Position numbers and translations under genes: made by a program. Positions 4,218 through 51,388 of a stretch of 64,000 bases of DNA are shown here, in pieces. Under the pieces are notes generated by a model. The model was not told the DNA's origin and made no database searches. It saw only the letters and a list, made by a program, of their open reading frames with translations. Origin of the DNA: a virus (Duplodnaviria; Caudoviricetes); IMG/VR virus record IMGVR_UViG_3300032312_001822, positions 26,596 through 90,595 of that record; one strand, written 5' to 3'. Every line of letters begins with the position of its first letter. The stretch's first letter is position 1.

Positions 4218-5132
4218 ATGAAAGGAATTATAACTATATTTGCTTTACCACAAGAATTAGAGGATTTAGCTTTAACATTATACAACCTAAAAAGAAACTC
4301 AATATACTTAGATCCTGACACTCAATATAAAATAGACATAACAATGTGTCTATCAGATGATTTGACAGATTGGGGTAAAACTAAATTGCCTAAAGAATAT
4401 ATTCAAGAAAGGACTACTGAATTAGTTACTAAATTTTTAGATTGGTGTGAATGGAATTTAATGTGGGGACATGAAGAAAATATTTTAGGATGTGTTTCTC
4501 AAAGAAGATATAGTCTTGAAAATAATCCAAATGCTGATTTCTTTATTTGGCTAGATTGTGATTTTATATTTAAAGATACTACTTTAAGTTATATGACCCA
4601 AGCATATAAGACTATTAAAGAATCAAATACTAATTTATTTATACTTACACCTCAATTTGTAAAACAATGGGATAACACCTGGGATGTACTTGTTAATAAA
4701 TCATTTCTAAATCATCCTATAGATTATGAATTAATAGCTGATGTTTATAAGGATACTTTACCTGATATAGGTGAAGTAGAAGTAAAAACTATTCCTAACT
4801 TTAAATTTGCAGGTGGTTGGTTTACTCTAATTTCTAAAGACTTATTAAGTAGAACAGGAATACCTGAATCTTTAGGTCACTATGGTTTAGAAGATACTTA
4901 TGTAACTGAATGCTGTAATATATTAAGACGTAATAATGAAAATATATATCAATTTATATTAGAAAATCATATAATAGGTGAAAGTTATACTCACAGGCCT
5001 AATGAAACTGTAAAAAAATATATATCAAGTATAAGTAAAAAAGATGAGTTTACTAAAATAGCTCACACAAATTTTCCAATTGAAATAAATAAATTTTATG
5101 AAAGAAGTAACAGTAGTACTAACAGCTTGTAA
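4218..5132 (+). CDS. GT-A fold glycosyltransferase
   Basis: FFIWLDCD DxD motif, GGWFTLIS, YGLEDT. Confidence 0.6.
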   Translation: MKGIITIFALPQELEDLALTLYNLKRNSIYLDPDTQYKIDITMCLSDDLTDWGKTKLPKEYIQERTTELVTKFLDWCEWNLMWGHEENILGCVSQRRYSLENNPNADFFIWLDCDFIFKDTTLSYMTQAYKTIKESNTNLFILTPQFVKQWDNTWDVLVNKSFLNHPIDYELIADVYKDTLPDIGEVEVKTIPNFKFAGGWFTLISKDLLSRTGIPESLGHYGLEDTYVTECCNILRRNNENIYQFILENHIIGESYTHRPNETVKKYISSISKKDEFTKIAHTNFPIEINKFYERSNSSTNSL

Positions 5133-5787
5133 CAGAGCAGATTTATTAGAACAAACTTTAGATAGTTTTTTCAAAATGAATACTTATCCCCTTAAACGTT
5201 TTATTATTATTGATGATGGAATGAATTTTGGGTGTAATGATTTTATTAAAGACAAATATGATTTTCCTATAGAAGTTATTTATAACGATCCTAAATTATT
5301 TCAAATCAAATCTATAGATTATGCTTATTCTTTAGTAGACACTGAATATATCTTTCATATGGAAGAAGATTGGTTATTTTTAAAGAAAGGATTTATTGAA
5401 GATTCAATGAAAGTATTAGAAGAGGATCCAAACATATTACAAGTATGGTTAAGAGGAATTGATGACACTACTGCTCCTCATCCATGGGAAAATGATGTAT
5501 ATGAGATAGATGGATTACAATGTGTCCTTCTTAAATACACAGGTATTTGGAATGGATTTAGTCTCAACCCAGGATTAAAAAGATTATCAGATTGGAAAAA
5601 ATTACCTAATGGGTATGAGGGATGTGATAGAATAACACCTGCAGAACAGAGTGGAGGAGTTACTCTTGAATGTGATATTTCAGTTGAGTATGCTAAACAA
5701 GGAATGATTGCTATGAGATTTTTAGAAACATATATTACTCATATTGGTTGGGATAGACATATAATAGATGGAGTTAATGGAAAATAA
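5098..5787 (+). CDS. Glycosyltransferase family 2
   Basis: VTVVLTACNR..LL..TLDSF, IIIDDG, YIFHMEEDW. Confidence 0.75.
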   Translation: MKEVTVVLTACNRADLLEQTLDSFFKMNTYPLKRFIIIDDGMNFGCNDFIKDKYDFPIEVIYNDPKLFQIKSIDYAYSLVDTEYIFHMEEDWLFLKKGFIEDSMKVLEEDPNILQVWLRGIDDTTAPHPWENDVYEIDGLQCVLLKYTGIWNGFSLNPGLKRLSDWKKLPNGYEGCDRITPAEQSGGVTLECDISVEYAKQGMIAMRFLETYITHIGWDRHIIDGVNGK

Positions 5788-6982
5788 TATACCTAAATTT
5801 ACATTTTGTATTACCTCTAAAAATAATTTGAGGTATTTAAAACACGCTGTTTACTATATTAAACAAAACTCAGCTGTTGAACATGATATTTTAGTATTCA
5901 TAGATGCAGACAATGATGGAACTGAAAAATGGTGTACTGAAAATAATATCAAGTATATTAAAAATTCATCTACAGAGTTATTTGGAATAGGTAATGCTTA
6001 TAATTTATTAGTTGAGAAATCTGAAACTGATTTTGTAGTAATATATCATGCTGATATGATTATGGGTAAGGGGTTTGATACCGCTCTATACAAAAATTGG
6101 AAGCCTAAAACAGTAATATCAGCCACTAGAATTGAACCCCCACTACATCCATCAGACCCTGCTAAAATTGTTTTAGATTTGGGATTATGGCCTGAAACTG
6201 ATATTAAAGATGGATTTAAGGTAAATGAATTTAATACATTTGTAGAACAAAATAAAAAAGATTTAATTACAAATGGTATTTTTGCTCCTTGGTTAATACA
6301 TAAAGATGATTTTAATAATGTAGGAGGACACGATCCTATTATGAAGTCACACAGTGAAGATAGAGACTTATTTAATAGATTTTTATTAAACGGGTACAAA
6401 TTAATTCAGAGTTGGGAGGCATTAGTTTATCATTTAACTTGTAGAGGAGGTCAATTTGAACATGCAAGTGAAACTAAAGATTTAACTCATAAATCAGATG
6501 AGTGGAATAATTTAGCTTATAACCAAACTAGAGAATTTATTAGAAAATGGGGAACACAACCTAAATATGATGAATTTCAACATCCTATTATAGCTCCTAA
6601 ATATAATATAGCATTTGTAGTTAAAAGTTGTAATTCACAAGCATTAGAAACATTTGAACCATGGTGTGATAGAATTTATATTGATGATGAAATGGGAGTA
6701 TTATTTGCTTCATATTATGAAAATGGTCATAAAAACACCTCATATGATTTAAAAAAGAGGATATTAAATACTAAATATAATGACCCCCAAGGAGAGAATG
6801 ATATAATAGTGGAGTTTGATATGAAACAATTTACACAACAGTCTTATAATATTATACAACAACTACCAGAAATTATAAAAGAAAGTGGTGAAGTAGGTTC
6901 ATTTGAATTAGATATATTTAAAATAATAATTAATAATTTAGCTGAGTATCAAAATGATTTAATATATCTTAAAAATAACTAA
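5768..6982 (+). CDS. Glycosyltransferase family 2 with C-terminal extension
   Basis: ILVFIDADNDGT, YHADM, VGGHD..SEDRD, VYHLTCRG. Confidence 0.8.
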   Translation: MELMENNIPKFTFCITSKNNLRYLKHAVYYIKQNSAVEHDILVFIDADNDGTEKWCTENNIKYIKNSSTELFGIGNAYNLLVEKSETDFVVIYHADMIMGKGFDTALYKNWKPKTVISATRIEPPLHPSDPAKIVLDLGLWPETDIKDGFKVNEFNTFVEQNKKDLITNGIFAPWLIHKDDFNNVGGHDPIMKSHSEDRDLFNRFLLNGYKLIQSWEALVYHLTCRGGQFEHASETKDLTHKSDEWNNLAYNQTREFIRKWGTQPKYDEFQHPIIAPKYNIAFVVKSCNSQALETFEPWCDRIYIDDEMGVLFASYYENGHKNTSYDLKKRILNTKYNDPQGENDIIVEFDMKQFTQQSYNIIQQLPEIIKESGEVGSFELDIFKIIINNLAEYQNDLIYLKNN

Positions 6983-7003
6983 TATTTATACTAAAATAAA
7001 ACT

Positions 7004-14784: not shown

Positions 14785-14961
14785 ATGAAAACTGTACAAT
14801 TTACCTTACAAGAAAGATGGGCTGCTTCAAAGCATATGGTTCAAAAATCTAAAAAAACTTACACTAGAAAAGATAAACATAAAAACAAGGACCATAAAGG
14901 TCCTTCTTTTATTGTAATGTTTGGCTCTCCGGGGTATGCTTCGTATATTAAATCATATTAA
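14785..14961 (+). CDS. ArfA/BrfA-like alternative ribosome-rescue peptide (58 aa as read to the stop; not in ORF track)
   Basis: MKTVQFTLQERWAASKHMVQKSKKTYTRKDKHKNKDHKGPSF...; KSKKxYxRKxKHK motif; own promoter at 14737; internal terminator. Confidence 0.6.
   Translation: MKTVQFTLQERWAASKHMVQKSKKTYTRKDKHKNKDHKGPSFIVMFGSPGYASYIKSY
14887..14912 (+). terminator. Intrinsic terminator inside the ArfA-like ORF
   Basis: AAGGACC-ataaa-GGTCCTT followed by CTTTTAT. Confidence 0.7.
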
Positions 14962-14980
14962 TAATTAAAAATAAAATGTT

Positions 14981-15718
14981 ATGACAAATCAAGAAACACA
15001 ATTAGAATTAGATTTCGGAATGTTAACAGTTGCTCAACAGGAGCGTGTTGACTCATTTATTCAAAACCAAAAAAATATTATTCAAAATAATATTAAAAAT
15101 AGTAATGCTATTGAAATATTATTAAATGAAGGTGGTTTTATTAAAGGTGTTGATTATGAAAACACTATTAAAACTAAAATTGTAACAGAAGTAAAAGAAT
15201 TTTATTGTGATGGTAATTTTAAAACTGATATTACTTATGAAACAGTAGATGGTAATATTTCAATTTTATATAAAAAATATGATTCTAGAGAAAATAAAAT
15301 TGTAACTCAAAAATCATATGTTGGTAAAGAATTAAATAAACTTCAATGTAGTTCTATCACCCCACAATATAGAGCTTACAAACCGAAATCATTATATGAA
15401 AAACTATTAGAAAATAATAGTAAAGCTCAAAATGAGTATGATAGTGCTAATCGTGAAAAAGCTGTTATTAATTATACTATTGAAAAATACAAAAATTTAT
15501 TTCCAAAAGCTGAAATTACAGTAGGTAAAGATTACTATAAAAATTATAGAAGTAATTATATTGAATTTCCAATTGTAATGGTTAAATTTGAAAGTGGTTC
15601 ATACATTAGCTTCAGAATGGGTTTTAAAATTGATGAAGAAGTTGTTTATAAAAAACATGATGCAGTTGCTTCTCAATTAAGCCCAATTGAAATATTAAAT
15701 ATTTTTAACCAACAATAA
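14981..15718 (+). CDS. Hypothetical early protein
   Basis: 245 aa; promoter at 14920; GTTATG start. Confidence 0.8.
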   Translation: MTNQETQLELDFGMLTVAQQERVDSFIQNQKNIIQNNIKNSNAIEILLNEGGFIKGVDYENTIKTKIVTEVKEFYCDGNFKTDITYETVDGNISILYKKYDSRENKIVTQKSYVGKELNKLQCSSITPQYRAYKPKSLYEKLLENNSKAQNEYDSANREKAVINYTIEKYKNLFPKAEITVGKDYYKNYRSNYIEFPIVMVKFESGSYISFRMGFKIDEEVVYKKHDAVASQLSPIEILNIFNQQ

Positions 15719-15779
15719 AGTTTGGCTCCCCTAAATTAAATTCGTATATTAAAGTATAATAATAAAAAATATAAATGTT

Positions 15780-15935
15780 ATGACACAAGTAGAAGAAGTA
15801 GTTAAAATTATTGAAAAAAATAAAAATTTAAAAACCAATGAACTAATTTGGTTACCAGAAGTAAAAAAATATAATTTACCAACTTCTACCATTTTAGTAT
15901 TAATAGAGGAAGTAAGAAAAAGTGACTTAAAGTAA
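15780..15935 (+). CDS. Small early protein (51 aa, not in track)
   Basis: MTQVEEVVKIIEKNK...; promoter at 15721; GTTATG start. Confidence 0.65.
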   Translation: MTQVEEVVKIIEKNKNLKTNELIWLPEVKKYNLPTSTILVLIEEVRKSDLK

Positions 15936-15996
15936 AGTTTGGCTCCCCTAAATTGATTTCGTATATTAAAGTATAATAATAAAAAATATAAATGTT

Positions 15997-16797
15997 ATGA
16001 CACAGTTAAAAAAATTATCAAGAGAGGAGTTAAAATCATTAGCACCTCAAGTATTCAATCATCAAGTTAGTTCTAAGTTAACTGACAAGTATGTTCACAT
16101 TCCAACTGATACTATAGTTGAAGATATGGAAAAGTTAGGTTGGTTCCCATATCAAGTGAAAACAGTTAAGGCTAGAAAATCATCAGGCGCAATGGGTAAA
16201 CACTTAATTCAGTTTTTTAATCCTGAAATTGTTATTAATAATGAAGCAGGTGAAGCTGATTTATTCCCAAATTTATTATTAATTAATTCACATGACGGTT
16301 CTACTTCAGTAAGATTTGAAATGGGAGTATTCAGATTAGTATGTGAAAATGGTTTAGTAATTAAATCAAAAGATTTTGGAGGTTTCAAAATGAGACATAT
16401 GGGTTATAATTTTGAAGATTTAAGAACCCATATTAGTTCTTTAGTTAAAACATTACCTGATGTAGTTGATAATTTGAATAAATTCTCTCAAGTAATTATG
16501 ACACCTGAGCAACAAAATGAATTTGCAAATAAGGCAATTGAAGCTAGGTTTAATGAAGAAAAAACATTACCTCAAAGTGAAATTGATTATTTATTAACAC
16601 CTGAACGTAAAGAAGATAAAGGTGACAATTTATGGGTTGTACTAAATCGTGTACAAGAAAAATTAACTCAAGGGGGTTTTGGTTATTTAAACGCCAAGGG
16701 TAAATTAAGAAAAACAAGAGCTGTTAAAAACTTTACAATGGATACTGAAATGAATATGAAGTTATGGGAAATTGCTGAAGAGTATTTAGTTAACTAA
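15997..16797 (+). CDS. DUF932/DUF945-family protein
   Basis: APQVF..S.KY.HIPT, LLLINSHDGS, GVFRLVCENGL, LWVVLNRVQE. Confidence 0.85.
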   Translation: MTQLKKLSREELKSLAPQVFNHQVSSKLTDKYVHIPTDTIVEDMEKLGWFPYQVKTVKARKSSGAMGKHLIQFFNPEIVINNEAGEADLFPNLLLINSHDGSTSVRFEMGVFRLVCENGLVIKSKDFGGFKMRHMGYNFEDLRTHISSLVKTLPDVVDNLNKFSQVIMTPEQQNEFANKAIEARFNEEKTLPQSEIDYLLTPERKEDKGDNLWVVLNRVQEKLTQGGFGYLNAKGKLRKTRAVKNFTMDTEMNMKLWEIAEEYLVN

Positions 16798-17022: not shown

Positions 17023-17211
17023 ATGACATTAACCCCAATTCAAAAATTAAGAGAAGATATTAGAAGCTTTGATTCAGGTTTGTACTTAGGAGTATTATCT
17101 TTATTAGTTGAAGCAGAAGGTCAAGAGAAAGTATTCTTGGAAAAAGTTTATAACGAACCCAAAACAACTGAGTTTGAAGAATATTATAAACAGTTTGGAA
17201 AACCTAAATAG
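17023..17211 (+). CDS. Hypothetical early protein
   Basis: 62-aa ORF. Confidence 0.55.
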   Translation: MTLTPIQKLREDIRSFDSGLYLGVLSLLVEAEGQEKVFLEKVYNEPKTTEFEEYYKQFGKPK

Positions 17212-17251
17212 GATTCGTATATTAAAGTATAATAATTAAAAATAGAGAGTT

Positions 17252-17440
17252 ATGATATTACAAGTAATTAATACTAAAAAGGAAAAGTTCAATCAAATTA
17301 GAACAACTAAAGAAAATTTATTTGCTGATTTAAAATTTCAAGGTTGGCATGTACAAGATTGCAAAATAAGTGAATTAAAAGAAGAATTAGTTCACACATT
17401 GTACAGAAGTGCAGATGGTAAAAACACTAGTACAAGATAA
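17252..17440 (+). CDS. Hypothetical early protein
   Basis: Promoter at 17194; GTTATG start. Confidence 0.7.
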   Translation: MILQVINTKKEKFNQIRTTKENLFADLKFQGWHVQDCKISELKEELVHTLYRSADGKNTSTR

Positions 17441-17448
17441 AAACAAAG

Positions 17449-17550
17449 AGTCAGGAGTCCATTGGTTGGAAGCACCTCCCCAAGGTTAAGTAACATTAAG
17501 GCTGACTTTTAATGGCAAAGCTGGAGTAGGTTCAAATCCTACCCTGACTT
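17449..17550 (+). ncRNA. tRNA-like RNA (degenerate or atypical tRNA)
   Basis: Perfect 7-bp acceptor stem AGTCAGG/CCTGACT; T-arm GTAGG-TTCAAAT-CCTAC; D-arm TCC-ATTGGTT-GGA; weak anticodon arm; 37-nt extra arm; no encoded CCA. Confidence 0.65.
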
Positions 17551-17551
17551 C

Positions 17552-17589
17552 TAATAAATGCCTCATAACCATTTATTATTTTTAATTAT
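17552..17589 (+). ncRNA. Anti-start-codon hairpin, copy 1
   Basis: TAATAAATG-cctcataac-CATTTATTA followed by TTTTTAATTAT; reverse complement of the early leader. Confidence 0.6.
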
Positions 17590-17597
17590 CGAAAAAG

Positions 17598-17623
17598 AGC
17601 CTAACAGAAATGTTAGGCTTTTT
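17598..17623 (+). terminator. Intrinsic terminator overlapping the next promoter
   Basis: AGCCTAACA-gaaa-TGTTAGGCT followed by TTTT. Confidence 0.8.
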
Positions 17624-17668
17624 GGGTTTAACTTCGTATATTAGGGCATAATTAAAAATTAATATGTT

Positions 17669-17944
17669 ATGAAAAACGAGAAAGTAGGTTACAGTAGAGA
17701 AGCAATGATTAAGTTTCTAAAAATTGAAGGTGTTTATGTTATTGGAACAACTGAAGAATTTTCAGGTCAAGAAGGTGGAATTTGGGTTGGGGGTGAAGAA
17801 ATGGATGATTTATTTGAATATTATAATAATAGTTCTAAATTCACATTTGGAGTAGAGAAAAAATTAAACGAAGCTGTTAATAAAAGAGGGTGGTGGTTTA
17901 GTTGGAATGATCCGGGTACAATGATGGTGTGGCCAATTAATTAA
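17669..17944 (+). CDS. Hypothetical early protein
   Basis: Promoter at 17613; GTTATG start. Confidence 0.75.
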   Translation: MKNEKVGYSREAMIKFLKIEGVYVIGTTEEFSGQEGGIWVGGEEMDDLFEYYNNSSKFTFGVEKKLNEAVNKRGWWFSWNDPGTMMVWPIN

Positions 17945-18001
17945 AATTTGGCCCCCCTAAATTGAATTCGTATATTAAAGTATAATTAAAAATTAAATGT
18001 T

Positions 18002-18214
18002 ATGAAAATTATTAAAGTTACAAGTTTATCTGATAAAAAATCAGTTTATCTAAATGTTGAAGCCATAGGACACTTTTACACAGTGCCTGAAAAAAGAGAT
18101 TATGGTAGAGTTGAAAAAGTAGAACATACTAGAATTGGAGTTACAACCCACAATAATGGAGGGTTTGAAATAACTGAAACCCCTGAAATGTTAATTAAAC
18201 TAATTAATAATTAA
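18002..18214 (+). CDS. Hypothetical early protein
   Basis: Promoter at 17947; GTTATG start. Confidence 0.75.
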   Translation: MKIIKVTSLSDKKSVYLNVEAIGHFYTVPEKRDYGRVEKVEHTRIGVTTHNNGGFEITETPEMLIKLINN

Positions 18215-18270
18215 TTGGCTTCTAAATATTAAATTCGTATATTATAGTATAATTAAAAATATAAAAAGTT

Positions 18271-19026
18271 ATGAAAAACATTGAAACATTAAATCAGGAA
18301 ATTGTAAAGTTAGAAGAACAAAAAACAAATTTCTTAAATTTAGAACAAGATTTAAAAGATGCAAGATCTAATATCTATGTTAGAGAACAACAAGCATTGA
18401 GTGATTCTTTATTACCATTTTTTGAAAATTTTAAATATGGTGTTAATATTGAAGTTAAAAGAGACTCTATTTATTTTAAAACTGATCACCCTGATTACAC
18501 TTATCAAAAAGAATTATTTAGTATTTATTTAAGAGAAAGATACTCAAGTGAGGGTAAAAAATATGATGGGGCTGATTTATCTTATTACACAACTTCTACT
18601 AAAGGAGAAAATACTTGGGAGTTAAAAAGATTACAATTATTAGGAAGAGTAGCTGAAATTTTAGAAGACCAACAAGGACTTATTGTTGATACAGCTAATG
18701 ATGTTTCAAATAAATTCAAAGAAGAATTTAATGAAGTTTATGGTAAAATGGGTGTTGTTGGAAATTCTATTAGAGACTTAAATAACCAAATTAGAGAAAT
18801 CCAAAAACAAGTAAAAAGAATTGAATTATTTGGAGAAGGAATCCAATTTGAAAAATCAAGATGCATTACTTTGAAACATAATTATGAACCAAGAGTTGTA
18901 TCTTTAAAATTAATTGAAGTTTCTAAATCAGGTAAAAAAGCAACTGCTGTATTTGAGTGGGAGAAAGGAAGAGAATCAAGAGAAGAAGGTGTAAATGTTG
19001 AAAAAATCATTTACCAAGTTATATAA
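18271..19026 (+). CDS. Hypothetical early protein with coiled-coil segments
   Basis: 251 aa; promoter at 18214. Confidence 0.8.
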   Translation: MKNIETLNQEIVKLEEQKTNFLNLEQDLKDARSNIYVREQQALSDSLLPFFENFKYGVNIEVKRDSIYFKTDHPDYTYQKELFSIYLRERYSSEGKKYDGADLSYYTTSTKGENTWELKRLQLLGRVAEILEDQQGLIVDTANDVSNKFKEEFNEVYGKMGVVGNSIRDLNNQIREIQKQVKRIELFGEGIQFEKSRCITLKHNYEPRVVSLKLIEVSKSGKKATAVFEWEKGRESREEGVNVEKIIYQVI

Positions 19027-19057
19027 GTGCCTCATAACCACTTATTATTTTAATTAT
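19023..19057 (+). ncRNA. Anti-start-codon hairpin, copy 2
   Basis: ATAAGTG-cctcataac-CACTTAT followed by TATTTTAATTAT; the A-T pair of copy 1 is G-C here. Confidence 0.6.
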
Positions 19058-19065
19058 ATTTTGTT

Positions 19066-19088
19066 AAAGCTCCTTATTAAGGGGCTTT
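19066..19088 (+). terminator. Terminator-like hairpin overlapping the next promoter
   Basis: AAAGCTCCTT-att-AAGGGGCTTT. Confidence 0.6.
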
Positions 19089-19141
19089 GGCTTTCTAAAT
19101 TATAATTCGTATATTTAAGTATAATTAAAAAATAAAATGTT

Positions 19142-19378
19142 ATGATGAGTTTTAAATTGCAAGATGAAGCAAATGGGTCTTTTAAAATATTTGATTTAAG
19201 ACAAGCTATAGGTAGAGAATTTAGTGATAATCACTCTCCAACTTTAAGGAGTAAATTATTAGAAGTAAGTGATTGTGGGAATGTTTGTACTGTAATTAGT
19301 GTAGAAGCCTATAATAAACAAGGGGGTAAAGTAAGTAAACAACCTTCTTATTTAACTTGGAATGCCTTATTTTATTAA
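19142..19378 (+). CDS. Hypothetical early protein
   Basis: Promoter at 19086; GTTATG start. Confidence 0.7.
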   Translation: MMSFKLQDEANGSFKIFDLRQAIGREFSDNHSPTLRSKLLEVSDCGNVCTVISVEAYNKQGGKVSKQPSYLTWNALFY

Positions 19379-26379: not shown

Positions 26380-27180
26380 ATGGAAGTATTAAGTTCAGAA
26401 ATTAAGATACTTCATGTCCCTCAAGAAGAAACAGAAGTACAATATACTAAAAAAGGTACAGTAAGGAAAAGAAAGCCTAAAACTAAAAAAATGTATTTCA
26501 CTCAGGACACTGAGGACGCAATTGTAGAGTATTTAACCGCCACAGATCATTACACCCGAAATAAGATTTATAATGAAAGAATAAAATATGCTTTTCATAA
26601 ATTAACAGAAAATATAATTCACACTTTTAAATTTTATTATACAGAAGTAGAAACAATAGCTGAGCTTCAACATGAAGTTACAGCCTTTCTCCTTGAAAAA
26701 CTGCATCTCTATAATCAATCCAAAGGTAAAGCTTATTCTTATTTTGGTACTATTGCTAAACGTTATTTAATTCTTTATAATAATAAGAATTATGAGAAGC
26801 TAAAAGGTAAAGCTGGTGTAGACGCTATTGATGAAGATAAAACAATTGTAATCAATATTTTAAACTCTTCTACACCTACAGATGATCCTTTAGTTAGTGA
26901 GAATTATTTTATAGAACAGTTTATTAAATATATGGATATTCATTTATTTAGAATATTCCCTGATAAAGAAGATGCTAAGACAACTGACGCTATTATGGAG
27001 TTATTTAAACGAAGAGAAGATTTAGACATTTTTAATAAGAAAGGAATTTACATTTATATTAGAGAGATGACTAATCAAGATACTCCTCAAATAACTAAAG
27101 TAATAAAAAGTTTAAAGAAAGTATATCTTAGATTATTAAACCAATACCTAGATTATGGTTATGTTGGGTTAAACTATTAA
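26380..27180 (+). CDS. Phage-encoded sigma factor, T4 gp55-like late sigma
   Basis: Region-2-like LQHEVTAFLLEKLHLYNQSKGKAYSYFGTIAKRYLI, comparable to the gp55 AFSYFT.I motif. Confidence 0.7.
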   Translation: MEVLSSEIKILHVPQEETEVQYTKKGTVRKRKPKTKKMYFTQDTEDAIVEYLTATDHYTRNKIYNERIKYAFHKLTENIIHTFKFYYTEVETIAELQHEVTAFLLEKLHLYNQSKGKAYSYFGTIAKRYLILYNNKNYEKLKGKAGVDAIDEDKTIVINILNSSTPTDDPLVSENYFIEQFIKYMDIHLFRIFPDKEDAKTTDAIMELFKRREDLDIFNKKGIYIYIREMTNQDTPQITKVIKSLKKVYLRLLNQYLDYGYVGLNY

Positions 27181-27198
27181 GAAATTTTTATTTAATTT

Positions 27199-27207
27199 AT
27201 ATTTATA
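27199..27207 (+). promoter_or_regulatory. Putative late promoter ATATTTATA (representative)
   Basis: Copies at 6982, 8822, 27199, 30401, 33203, 40404, 46296, 48973 and 53500, each ending 3-22 nt upstream of a structural or L/I-x-E gene start. Confidence 0.75.
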
Positions 27208-27220
27208 ATAAAAATATATC

Positions 27221-30381: not shown

Positions 30382-30412
30382 AAACAAGTTGTATTATTAA
30401 ATATTTATAATT

Positions 30413-48208: not shown

Positions 48209-48972
48209 TGAAAAAATCTTACGACAGAATTTTACAGATCTCAGATGACCATAAACAGATTACATTACCTGACTCAAGGTTTTATAGACGTAATGGAAAT
48301 TATTATCCTTCAGTAACACATGTTTTATCTTGTTACCCAAAAGGTCCTCATTTTGAAGATTGGTTAAAGAAGGTAGGTTACGCATCAGAATATATTGTAA
48401 AAAAAGCAGCAGAAGAAGGAACTCAAACTCATAACCTGTGTGAAGATTACTTAAATGGAGAAGAATGTTCATTCTTAAACCAATATGGTAATCCTGCTTA
48501 CTCACCTCATGTTTGGCAAATGTTTTTAAACTTTGTTAATTTTTGGGAAACTGTTAAACCTACATTAATTGAAACTGAAGTTCATTTATTTTCTGATAAA
48601 TTAAAAGTAGCGGGTACCTGTGATTTAATTGTTGAAATTAATGGTGAGTTATGGGTTATAGATTTAAAAACATCTAACCATTTACAAACAACATATGACT
48701 TACAAACAGCTGTTTATGGTCAATGTTATGAAGAATGTTTTGGTAAGAAAATAGACCGTTACGGTATATTGTGGTTAAAATCAAGATCTAGAGGTGAAGA
48801 TAAAGCTGGTAAAAAATTAAAAGGTAAAAATTGGGAAGTAGTTGAATCTGAAAGAACACAACAACAAAACCTAGACATTTTTATGAATGTTAAAGCATTA
48901 TTTGATTTAGAGAATCCATCTCCTAAACCTCATATATTAACATTAAGAACTACAGTTAAAAGGGAAGTATAA
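48208..48972 (+). CDS. PD-(D/E)xK exonuclease (RecB/Cas4-like phage exonuclease)
   Basis: YPSVTHVL, GTQTHNLCE, ETEV, AGTCDL, IDLKTS. Confidence 0.88.
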   Translation: MKKSYDRILQISDDHKQITLPDSRFYRRNGNYYPSVTHVLSCYPKGPHFEDWLKKVGYASEYIVKKAAEEGTQTHNLCEDYLNGEECSFLNQYGNPAYSPHVWQMFLNFVNFWETVKPTLIETEVHLFSDKLKVAGTCDLIVEINGELWVIDLKTSNHLQTTYDLQTAVYGQCYEECFGKKIDRYGILWLKSRSRGEDKAGKKLKGKNWEVVESERTQQQNLDIFMNVKALFDLENPSPKPHILTLRTTVKREV

Positions 48973-48995
48973 ATATTTATATTAATAATGTACTT

Positions 48996-49748: not shown

Positions 49749-51388
49749 TGAATATAGGTGAAGAAATAGTATCACAATTATTAGAAGAGTCAACTCCTAT
49801 AATAGCTTTATACCCAGGTAAATTCAAACCACCCCATGCTGGTCATTTTGATGTGGTTACTAAAGCCGCTGAAATAGCGGATAAAGTTATTGTGATAATG
49901 TCTCAAGGTTCTAAAGATGAATTTACAGCTGAGGATTCAATGAAAGTTTGGAGACTATATGAAGATCTTTTACCAGGTAATGTTCAAATATTAATATCAG
50001 GTAAATCATCACCTGTAAGTGAAGTGTTTGATATTATAAAAGATAAAGCAACAGATTTTATTGTACTATATGGTAAGGGTGAAGAAAGTAGATATAGAGC
50101 TATAGAAAAAGATCCTAATACTTACTCTAATGTTAAAATAGTAGATGCAGGTACTTTTGAAAGTTTAAACGCTACTGATTTAAGAACAGCTATTAGAAAT
50201 AAAGATTTAGAAGATATTCAAAAATTCTTACCTAAGGGTATTGATGCTAAAAAGGTATTAGATGTTTACACTCAGAAAGAATTTAAACCTGGTCCTATAT
50301 TACATGAGTCATTTACTCCTCAAAAAGCACCTTTAATGAAGAAATTTGTTGAGTATGCTTGTAATGAATTAAGTATTAGTGAACCTAAAATTAATATTAT
50401 AAACTCACCAACATACTCTCAAGAAAATCATAGTTTTGGAGGTTATATACCTTCAGAAGAAAAAATACTTGTAGTAGTACATAACAGAAACATGGCTGAT
50501 ATTTTAAGAACATTAGCACATGAATTAGTTCACCATCATCAGAAATTAAATGGAGATGAATTAGATGGAGAAGATGGATCTGAAACTGAAAATGAAGCTA
50601 ACGCTAAGGCAGGAGTTATAATGAGAAAATTTGGACGTGAAAATCCTGAAATATTTGAAAATGAATTAAAGGAAATGATGTATCCTCCATATAAAGCTAA
50701 TATGGTTGGAAAAACAAGATATAAAGCTTCTGATACTTTTACTAATGATCCTAAAGTTGCTATTAAAAAAGGATATTTAGAACAAAATATGGTTGAAGCT
50801 GATCCAAAAACTGGTACAGGTAAAAAACCAAAAGGATCAGGACGTCGTTTATATACTGATGAAGATCCTAAAGATACTGTGTCTATTAAGTTTAAAACTA
50901 AAGAAGATATAGTTGATACTTTAAATAAAGATTCATTTAAATCTAAACCTCATAACCGTCAATCACAAATTATTAATGTTATTCATCAACGTGTTAGAGC
51001 TGCTTATAGTAAAGCTAAAGATCCTGAAGTAAAATCTCGTTTAAAACGTGCTTTAGATTATATTGAAAGACGTAAAGAGACATCTAAAAAGAAAACAGAA
51101 CGTTTAAATAAAATAAAGGAAACATCAGATCCTCAATCAGGTAAATCAGCTCCTTATGGTTCAGGATTTGCCCCAGTTAAAGAATTAGTAACAGATACAG
51201 AAATAATTTGTGATAATTGTGGATGGGAATGGAAAATAGTAGATGGAGGAGATGATCTTTATATCTGCCATAAGTGTGGTAATGATAATACCCCAGAACA
51301 GCTAAATGAAAAATGTTGGCCTGGATATACTAAAAAAGGTATGAAAACCATGTTTGGTAAAAAATATCCTAATTGTGTTAAAAAATAA
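49748..51388 (+). CDS. Modular protein: HxGH nucleotidyltransferase + HExxH zincin-like domain + small basic and Zn-ribbon modules
   Basis: GKFKPPHAGH, LNATDLR; LAHELVHHHQ; CDNCGW..CHKCG; KCWPGY..NCVKK. Confidence 0.75.
   Translation: MNIGEEIVSQLLEESTPIIALYPGKFKPPHAGHFDVVTKAAEIADKVIVIMSQGSKDEFTAEDSMKVWRLYEDLLPGNVQILISGKSSPVSEVFDIIKDKATDFIVLYGKGEESRYRAIEKDPNTYSNVKIVDAGTFESLNATDLRTAIRNKDLEDIQKFLPKGIDAKKVLDVYTQKEFKPGPILHESFTPQKAPLMKKFVEYACNELSISEPKINIINSPTYSQENHSFGGYIPSEEKILVVVHNRNMADILRTLAHELVHHHQKLNGDELDGEDGSETENEANAKAGVIMRKFGRENPEIFENELKEMMYPPYKANMVGKTRYKASDTFTNDPKVAIKKGYLEQNMVEADPKTGTGKKPKGSGRRLYTDEDPKDTVSIKFKTKEDIVDTLNKDSFKSKPHNRQSQIINVIHQRVRAAYSKAKDPEVKSRLKRALDYIERRKETSKKKTERLNKIKETSDPQSGKSAPYGSGFAPVKELVTDTEIICDNCGWEWKIVDGGDDLYICHKCGNDNTPEQLNEKCWPGYTKKGMKTMFGKKYPNCVKK

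Follow-up and report, generated by a model that had tools for sequence, protein, structure and literature searches.

A conserved hairpin and anti-leader module at the predicted 3' ends of early transcripts in Flavobacterium-type phages

The stretch of viral DNA analyzed here, which we call the window (64,000 nucleotides (nt), positions 26,596 to 90,595 of IMG/VR record IMGVR_UViG_3300032312_001822), contains two copies of a small hairpin element with a tail. Loop and tail are complementary to the leader which precedes the early genes of the same phage. Why would a phage place a complement of its shared early leader at the end of a few early transcripts? The first-pass annotation of this sequence suggested that small RNAs from 3' untranslated regions (UTRs) present a loop seed to the start codons of early mRNAs. 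Much of this stands: There is a conserved module on the plus strand, at 3' ends, complementary to the leader and with loop and tail exposed. The anti-AUG loop, on the other hand, is missing in most relatives. We favour a reading in cis, to which we give a probability of about 0.4: Judging by sequence and predicted folds, the plus-strand anti-leader RNA would occlude the early start region, with the leader of its own transcript as the first partner.

The early leader and its two complements

The viral contig to which the window belongs measures 90.6 kb, is about 55% complete and has 28% GC. Its only DNA-level relatives among named phages are the vB_FspM_immuto Flavobacterium phages: The window comes from a Flavobacterium-type phage. 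All genes concerned here are on the plus strand. From about 9 to 23 kb every small open reading frame (ORF) has its own promoter-leader module, so to speak a single-gene cassette. The promoter has the form TT(T)G, 20 nt, TATATT(A), with exactly this spacing in 19 of 23 cassettes. Some 4–5 nt past the -7 box comes (GT)ATAATTAAAAAT, then a variable segment of 5–8 nt, then GTTATG. Bacteroidota promoters have a -33 TTTG and a -7 TAnnTTTG box, about 19–20 nt apart, with the start of transcription 4–5 nt past the -7 box (PMC6847099). Because the first part of the cassette matches this pattern, TTCGTATATTA is, by its sequence, a promoter box and ATAATTAAAAAT...GTTATG a transcribed leader; the promoters would be of the host type and the early cassettes dependent on host sigma factor. 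The leaders lack a Shine-Dalgarno sequence, as expected for Bacteroidota. In Flavobacterium, translation initiation relies on an unstructured, A-rich leader (PMC6847099).

An exact 12-mer of the leader has 11 matches on the plus strand, all of them in leaders, and a single one on the minus strand, which is copy 1 of the element. The two copies are made up as follows.

17552..17578, plus strand: copy 1 hairpin, 9-bp stem TAATAAATG/CATTTATTA (17552-17560/17570-17578) and 9-nt loop CCTCATAAC (17561-17569)
17579..17589, plus strand: copy 1 single-stranded anti-leader tail TTTTTAATTAT, complement of ATAATTAAAAA
about 17593..17627, plus strand: intrinsic terminator after copy 1, which can work in both directions given the A-tract upstream
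19023..19045, plus strand: copy 2 hairpin, 7-bp stem ATAAGTG/CACTTAT (19023-19029/19039-19045) and loop CCTCATAAC (19030-19038)
19048..19058, plus strand: copy 2 single-stranded anti-leader tail TTTTAATTATA, from sequence and fold
about 19065..19097, plus strand: intrinsic terminator after copy 2, whose TTTGG tail is also the -33 box of the next cassette

Both hairpins, with their identical 9-nt loop, are thus where the first-pass annotation had placed them. They differ in one stem pair, changed on both sides (A-T in one copy, G-C in the other), a compensatory change as had been claimed. The stem of copy 2 takes in the stop codon TAA (19024-19026) of the preceding gene. The loop CCTCATAAC is the complement of GTTATGAGG, and both tails have the form TTTT(T)AATTAT. 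We could also confirm that the element is the reverse complement of the early leader, with a 3-nt indel between them (ATAATTAAAAAT-AATAAATG-GTTATG in the element, ATAATTAAAAAT-N5-GTTATG in the leader). In the whole 90.6-kb contig GCCTCATAACCA is found only at copies 1 and 2. A third CCTCATAACC, at 50948, was discarded: It lies within a coding sequence and has no tail. No Rfam family reaches its gathering threshold anywhere in the window, and the region 17200–19200 gives sub-threshold matches at chance level only.

The loop of the window copies extends the complementarity to GUUAUGA, that is, to the start codon and its context. GTT precedes ATG in 19 of the 25 cassette-type starts of the window, while the four late examples have ACT, ATC, ATT and CTT. 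These non-cassette, probably late genes have ATATTTATA in common about 10–25 nt 5' of the ATG (6975-7003, 27190-27220, 30385-30412, 48965-48995), a possible late promoter motif.

The placement at the 3' ends of early transcripts, just before a terminator, was correct as regards both terminators. Copy 1, nevertheless, follows a tRNA-like RNA (17449-17550) and not the 3' UTR of a coding gene.

Conservation of the module in related phages

The gene which ends in copy 2 allowed us to follow the element in other phages.

18271..19026, plus strand: gene for an early protein of 251 amino acids (aa), function unassigned; its orthologues and one paralogue carry the anti-leader module at their 3' end

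Searches with this protein in Pfam, PHROGs, PDB profiles and the Atlas gave nothing usable. Orthologues are found in 13 viral contigs and 51 metagenome contigs. In close relatives (84–88% identity) the elements are identical. About 30 distinct lineages with 43–55% protein identity, including the cultured phage immuto, keep the same layout at the end of the orthologous gene, as read from some 30 distinct downstream sequences at 45 loci. The order is constant: a hairpin with the stop codon inside, directly TTTT(T)AATTATTGAT, CGAAGA, and a terminator. The anti-leader of these relatives is single-stranded, 14–15 nt long, and begins 0–3 nt after the stop codon. Terminator sequences and downstream genes vary among the lineages, therefore the module travels with the upstream gene.

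The anti-leader follows the leader of its own lineage: It is ATCAATAATTAAAAC in the lineages of types B and C and ATAATTAAAAAT here. Its reverse complement in those relatives, ATCAATAATTAAAA, is the invariant 5' block of their own leader GGTATCAATAATTAAAAC. The complementarity stops 1–4 nt from the start of transcription as the -7 box predicts it. In the genome of immuto (160 kb, complete) there are 16 forward leader cores, all in the early array, and one reverse copy, directly after the orthologous gene (immuto26A_136). A 150-kb relative, 93% complete, has 12 forward cores and one reverse copy. Another reverse copy, in contig L021, proved to be coding sequence.

A paralogue of the 251-aa gene, in L036, also carries the module. 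There (4600-5400) the gene ends in TAG, directly followed by TTTTTAATTATTAAT and a terminator, with no hairpin. Two other loci have a tandem arrangement (L022 3277-3400, L049 1466-1590): After the first module comes a second anti-leader (TTTTTAATTATTGAT) and a second, different terminator. The CGAAGA(A) between anti-leader and terminator is kept in all B/C-type modules (for example L016 3286-3292) and in the window (17590-17597) despite different terminators; a bidirectional terminator may have its A-tract here.

The hairpin is also conserved as a structure. At least five different stems are kept, with two-sided changes and G-U pairs:

TTCAGC/GCTGAA
CTCAGT/GCTGAG
TACCAGC/GTTGGTA
CTGAGAAGG/CCTTCTTAG
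the two forms of the window

The B/C hairpins have energies of -9.3 to -13.6 kcal/mol, compared with -2.1 +/- 2.7 for control gene ends. In the five which we folded on both strands, the plus strand gives -9.8 to -13.6 and the minus strand -4.5 to -9.0 kcal/mol. Five changes were seen in the anti-leader: three from A to G, which keep G-U pairs with the leader, one transversion and one deletion. The A to G changes suggest, without proving it, that the anti-leader acts as RNA. Wider pattern scans of viral contigs for the hairpin detected it in two close relatives only; the other matches were chance occurrences in coding sequence, with no tail.

These data bear on whether the element works as RNA at all. 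It might be the remnant of an inverted cassette, produced by recombination between promoter-leader units and kept by gene conversion, or else a DNA site for a factor which binds the leader DNA whichever way it points. Copy 1, read on the minus strand, is TTCG + ATAATTAAAAAT + AATAAATG + GTTATGAGG, a cassette minus the 11 nt which hold the -7 box. Cassettes are near-identical inside one genome and differ between genomes, which suggests concerted evolution, and gene content differs at cassette boundaries. T4-type phages offer a precedent in the shuffling of promoter/stem-loop (PeSL) modules (PMC2839356, PMC4122927). A mere remnant, however, would hardly be retained at the same site across 43–55% protein identity while the neighbouring terminators change. 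The adjoining hairpin covaries, with G-U pairs, and is more stable on the plus strand in the B/C lineages; the A to G changes break DNA identity and keep RNA pairing; and the complementarity ends at the predicted transcription start. We consider an element devoid of RNA function rather unlikely.

The opposite strand has to be considered too. An inverted promoter or leader which drives a minus-strand gene had been named in advance as an outcome that would overturn the small RNA proposal. Such a promoter might serve an antisense RNA or a short ORF (MRHLL..., 19–26 codons); alternatively, leader and anti-leader might be inverted repeats around an invertible segment, and they do flank the 251-aa gene. 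Copy 2 has a sigma-70-type match at 19080..19053 on the minus strand (TTAATA-16-TATAAT, 10 of 12 positions), and ATG AGG CAT/CAC TTA opens short frames in both copies. The host group, though, uses -33/-7 promoters (TTTG/TAnnTTTG) and not TTGACA/TATAAT (PMC6847099), and neither box was seen 5' of the inverted copies on reading by eye, with no scan run. On that strand a terminator-like site lies just upstream of copy 1. The short ORFs share only 4–5 codons (MRHL), followed by unrelated sequence, and the B/C elements have no ATG. As for inversion, no inverted form of the gene between the repeats was found: All of the approximately 30 distinct downstream sequences (45 loci) have a single orientation relative to the flanks. 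Both versions of this idea seem very improbable to us.

The anti-AUG loop has a narrower distribution than the tail. We did not find the loop TCATAAC in lineages of types B and C; there, just 17% of cassette ATGs are preceded by GTT (n=113 and n=23). Two more lineages, both rich in GTT (84% and 68%), have it as AATAAGTG-CTTCATAAC-CGCTTATT, with one U-G pair, and again with TTTTTAATTAT and a terminator downstream. The loop is thus confined to lineages with GTT before ATG (68–86%, against 17% elsewhere). This co-occurrence is in keeping with the proposal that the shared start site is targeted, but the part conserved in the whole group is the tail complementary to the 5' leader; most relatives have neither the anti-AUG loop nor GTTATG. 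In the same way, the expectation that homologues keep the stem and the CATAAC loop holds for the stems, which covary with their pairing kept, and fails for the B/C lineages as regards the loop. That loop and GTT occur together fits, at the level of sequence, a switch that would act in trans; it may also go back to a single evolutionary event, since the GTT lineages are possibly one clade.

Possible pairing partners

If the module is an RNA, with which leader does it pair? Three partners can be considered: the leader of the transcript that carries it, the leaders of other early mRNAs, and the leader of the next cassette. The features surrounding the two copies are the following.

17195..17251, plus strand: promoter and shared leader of a 62-aa early gene, with -33 TTG, 20-nt spacer and -7 TATATT at 17218; 5' end of the copy 1 transcript
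17252..17440, plus strand: 62-aa early ORF, with an orthologue in L061
17633..17668, plus strand: next cassette after copy 1, with -7 box at 17637 and the leader of a 91-aa gene; its -33 TTG is at 12 nt instead of the usual 20
18215..18270, plus strand: promoter and leader of the 251-aa gene, predicted 5' end near 18247
19087..19141, plus strand: next cassette after copy 2, promoter and leader of a 78-aa gene, from sequence

We have folded full-length transcripts, from predicted start to terminator, in three cases (401–863 nt). In all three the 5' leader pairs with the 3' module, with probabilities of about 0.9–1 across the paired blocks. The segment at the 3' end is complementary to the 5' leader of its own transcript, the arrangement known from mRNAs with 5'-3' UTR pairing.

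The cis reading may be described as follows. Certain early transcripts would end in a conserved plus-strand RNA module made up of hairpin, single-stranded anti-leader and intrinsic terminator. The anti-leader would pair with the 5' leader common to all host-sigma-dependent early cassettes of the phage group, and in the window lineage the loop would extend this pairing to GUUAUGA. An unstructured initiation region without a Shine-Dalgarno sequence would be occluded by the RNA-RNA duplex. The first and most likely partner would be the leader of the carrying transcript. The resulting closed form, with 5' and 3' ends paired, would limit translation of that transcript; perhaps it would also be a substrate for RNase III or protect the 5' end. 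Released copies could pair with other early mRNAs as well, because all early leaders are alike. Own-transcript pairing is placed first because it is intramolecular and stoichiometric, it agrees with a module that is bound to one gene family and placed at the stop codon, and it has precedents in icaR and hbs. Any of these pairings, be it with the own transcript, by read-through or in trans, should reduce initiation, because initiation in Flavobacterium needs an unstructured leader. We infer transcription of the module, pairing in the cell and an effect of this pairing from the complementarity, its conservation, the covariation of the stems and the predicted folds.

Several observations weigh against this cis reading. 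The hairpins of the window (type A) are weak, with -3.5 to -4.2 kcal/mol; of 195 control gene ends, 29 reach -4 kcal/mol or better. Nor does the plus strand give a more stable fold than the minus strand. All the duplexes are AU-rich and modest in energy, and the equilibrium folding of an 850-nt mRNA leaves out ribosomes and kinetics. The part of the element opposite the spacer is not tuned to the own leader, nor do own leaders compensate for variant anti-leaders; in the absence of such tuning a generic target fits as well as a cis target. Finally, where the element follows a tRNA-like RNA, processing of the latter would cut the element off from its own leader.

The main alternative is a master switch in trans. 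The module would be released as a stable RNA of about 80 nt and pair with the shared leader of all early mRNAs, with a delayed global shut-off of early translation as the result. Such RNA-only control, directed at the two invariant blocks of the leader, is possible on the evidence of sequence and folds, though somewhat less likely than the cis reading. In prediction, isolated modules of about 80 nt from five lineages do fold like small RNAs (5' hairpin, single-stranded anti-leader or linker of about 14–19 nt, terminator), and their z scores lie between -4.0 and -5.6. Loop and tail, the exposed parts, correspond to the two blocks of the leader which do not vary, and the stem lies opposite the variable spacer. 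Complementarity does not go beyond the generic block, not even where conservation of the own leader does, and there are only one or two copies per genome. The element has one feature expected of a small RNA acting in trans: a seed which is accessible in the predicted folds, complementary to several targets and conserved among relatives.

Pairing energies give a divided answer. For predicted pairing with 21 cassette leaders the mean is -9.7 kcal/mol, compared with -4.0 for other start regions, in favour of the trans reading. The values are modest, however, and some cassette leaders pair poorly (-2.6 to -7 kcal/mol). Pairing within the own transcript, which the first-pass annotation did not consider, is thermodynamically dominant in the prediction, and it should win as long as the module is still attached. 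An RNA from the same promoter class as its 20–25 or so targets would need a much greater stability than they have. No internal promoter was seen 5' of a B-type module, on reading L010 alone and with no systematic scan. We have also considered whether the element is tuned to its own or to the downstream leader, and discarded the idea: Neither has the best pairing energy, and transcripts with a variant anti-leader have a canonical leader of their own.

A switch in trans would require release of the module. For copy 2 this might occur by mRNA decay or processing, which could leave a protected 3' fragment. For copy 1 a possible route is the processing of the RNA that precedes it.

17449..17550, plus strand: tRNA-like RNA, 7-bp acceptor AGTCAGG/CCTGACT and T arm GTAGG-TTCAAAT-CCTAC; no canonical anticodon arm, no CCA

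This is not a canonical tRNA with a cloverleaf and a 7-nt anticodon loop: ARAGORN makes no call, and the Rfam tRNA model gives 18.8 bits, below its threshold of 29. Relatives show compensatory changes in the T stem and the acceptor. At four loci (copy 1, L061, L053 and L007) the element begins 2–3 nt past the 3' end of such an RNA. These four tRNA-like RNAs (window 17449-17550, L061 3907-4003, L007 2161-2288, L053 3756-3822) have covarying acceptor and T arms, with no canonical anticodon arm and no CCA. Their interiors are wholly different between close relatives, only the ends and flanks are kept. A tRNA-like shape is recognized by RNase P and RNase Z. By analogy with the 3' spacer of leuZ, the junctions suggest that these enzymes may release the element.

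In the relatives a variable cluster of tRNA and odd tRNA genes is found just 5' of the 251-aa gene (L022 2321-2401; L044 2316-2393; L071 983-1067; L049 362-515; L014 271-343; L035 1813-1884). In these clusters ARAGORN reports a stop anticodon (tta), one anticodon of 4 nt and one of 2 nt, and tRNAs with A at the first anticodon position.

The third partner is the next cassette. The first-pass annotation also stated that read-through would sequester the next start site, and the minimum-energy folds predict this for both copies: The element pairs with the next leader and its AUG, with terminator and promoter enclosed. The module might then insulate the downstream gene, as in T4 e, soc, 49 and I-TevI: For this gene, only transcripts from its own promoter would be translated. 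The topology is that of T4 e, with an upstream arm paired to the downstream start region and the proximal promoter inside the loop, between the arms (PMC3014915). The cassette after copy 1 has a -33 box at an unusual spacing. Other facts do not agree with insulation. The module goes with the upstream gene, while downstream genes vary; an intrinsic terminator between the arms argues against abundant read-through, and L022 and L049 even have a second module and terminator in tandem. In the B/C lineages pairing stops short of the AUG, and it is hard to see why, of the 20 or so junctions, just one or two should need such a device. On these models we find it quite unlikely as the role of the module. 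With regard to the 91-aa gene itself, its promoter may be weak because the TTG is 12 nt instead of 20 nt from the -7 box (17620-17645); the close relative L007 is arranged alike.

In summary, the cis and trans readings are not mutually exclusive. The cis reading comes first and the trans reading second, the others are lower.

Related systems and significance

The statement that no comparable system has been described does not hold: icaR, hbs, T4 e/soc/49/I-TevI and P1 c4 are precedents. In the icaR mRNA of Staphylococcus aureus a 3' UTR motif pairs with the initiation region of its own transcript; the initiation complex is thereby blocked, and a substrate for RNase III arises (PMC3868564). As here, a short 3' motif is complementary to the initiation region of its own mRNA and conserved among relatives. 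In icaR it is an anti-Shine-Dalgarno motif (UCCCCUG) in the long 3' UTR of one bacterial gene. The phage module, on the other hand, is found in a host which does not use Shine-Dalgarno pairing, lies 0–3 nt from the stop codon and adjoins the terminator; its motif fits a leader and AUG context common to some 20 genes, and its pairing is predicted from sequence. In hbs, the far 5' end of the leader and the 3' UTR of one mRNA form a long-range duplex of about 14 bp, the length of the B/C anti-leader. Its effect is to modulate cleavage by RNase Y and to stabilize the mRNA, initiation is not blocked.

In T4, e, soc, 49 and I-TevI are under an early/late control: An RNA segment further upstream pairs with their start regions, and transcripts from the proximal promoter do not contain this inhibitory arm (PMC3014915). 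The T4 arms are gene-specific and belong to one continuous untranslated region, with no terminator between them; in the phage module a terminator separates the arms, and the inhibitory arm fits any cassette.

Two systems resemble the module as a possible free RNA. The c4 antisense RNA of phages P1 and P7 is processed by RNase P. It is cut from the same class of transcripts as its target, and short exposed complementary blocks mask a ribosome binding site (Citron and Schuster 1990, as cited in PMC8198154). It controls a single operon (icd-ant) in lysogenic immunity and lies upstream of its target, whereas here some 20 genes of a virulent-type phage have the target motif. The 3' external transcribed spacer of leuZ in E. 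coli is an RNA sponge (Lalaouna 2015, as cited in PMC8166272). This pairing RNA comes from the 3' trailer of a tRNA precursor, between tRNA and terminator, the same position as the copies in the window (copy 1), L061, L053 and L007. It sponges small RNAs with Hfq; in our case the upstream RNA is a non-canonical tRNA-like one and the proposed targets are mRNA leaders. Hfq is not known from the host phylum.

T4 also has global control of early translation: The protein RegA represses about 30 early mRNAs at AU-rich start regions (PMC3014915). Its selected binding consensus aaAAUUGUUAUGUAA resembles the leader AAAAAU..GUUAUGA of the window (for example 14961-14986; PMC3014915). A RegA-like repressor as the reason for GTTATG was considered and rejected, since there is no match to PF01818 in the contig or in three relatives, two of them 93–100% complete. 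If the trans reading were true, RNA would do in a host without Shine-Dalgarno pairing what T4 does with the proteins RegA and RegB, and the GTTATG context of some 20 genes would be held constant as a target.

The early array itself has a parallel in the PeSL arrays of T4-type phages, in which small early ORFs lie between near-identical promoter/stem-loop modules and are shuffled at the boundaries (PMC2839356, PMC4122927). In the window, too, repeated modules of promoter and terminator flank single small ORFs, and gene content varies at module boundaries. PeSL units have been described as recombination substrates; a conserved inverted copy of the leader without promoter is not part of that description. 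Two cassettes of the window (15740-15790 and 15957-16005), those of a 51-aa and a 266-aa ORF, share an identical promoter-leader of 39 nt, and their first codons agree as well; this suggests a recent duplication. The product of the longer ORF, 266 aa, belongs to DUF932.

The mechanism therefore belongs to known kinds: pairing between 3' and 5' UTRs, antisense RNAs of phages and a masking of start sites which depends on the promoter. The novelty, as far as the sequences tell, lies in a generic anti-leader directed against a repeated early cassette, conserved across a phage group and linked to tRNA-like RNAs; our literature searches found no description of such an element in Bacteroidota phages. 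That tRNA-like RNAs and the element adjoin repeatedly hints at a route of processing, one which may account for the odd tRNA-like genes of these phages as well. The cultured phage immuto has the module and Flavobacterium johnsoniae has reporter tools, so the proposal is open to direct test. Knowledge of gene regulation in Bacteroidota phages is scarce, and their hosts initiate translation without Shine-Dalgarno pairing. A conserved RNA complementary to the leader of a whole early array would be a simple RNA-based way of timing or limiting early expression. Besides, it would be an example of a repeated regulatory cassette with a built-in antidote.

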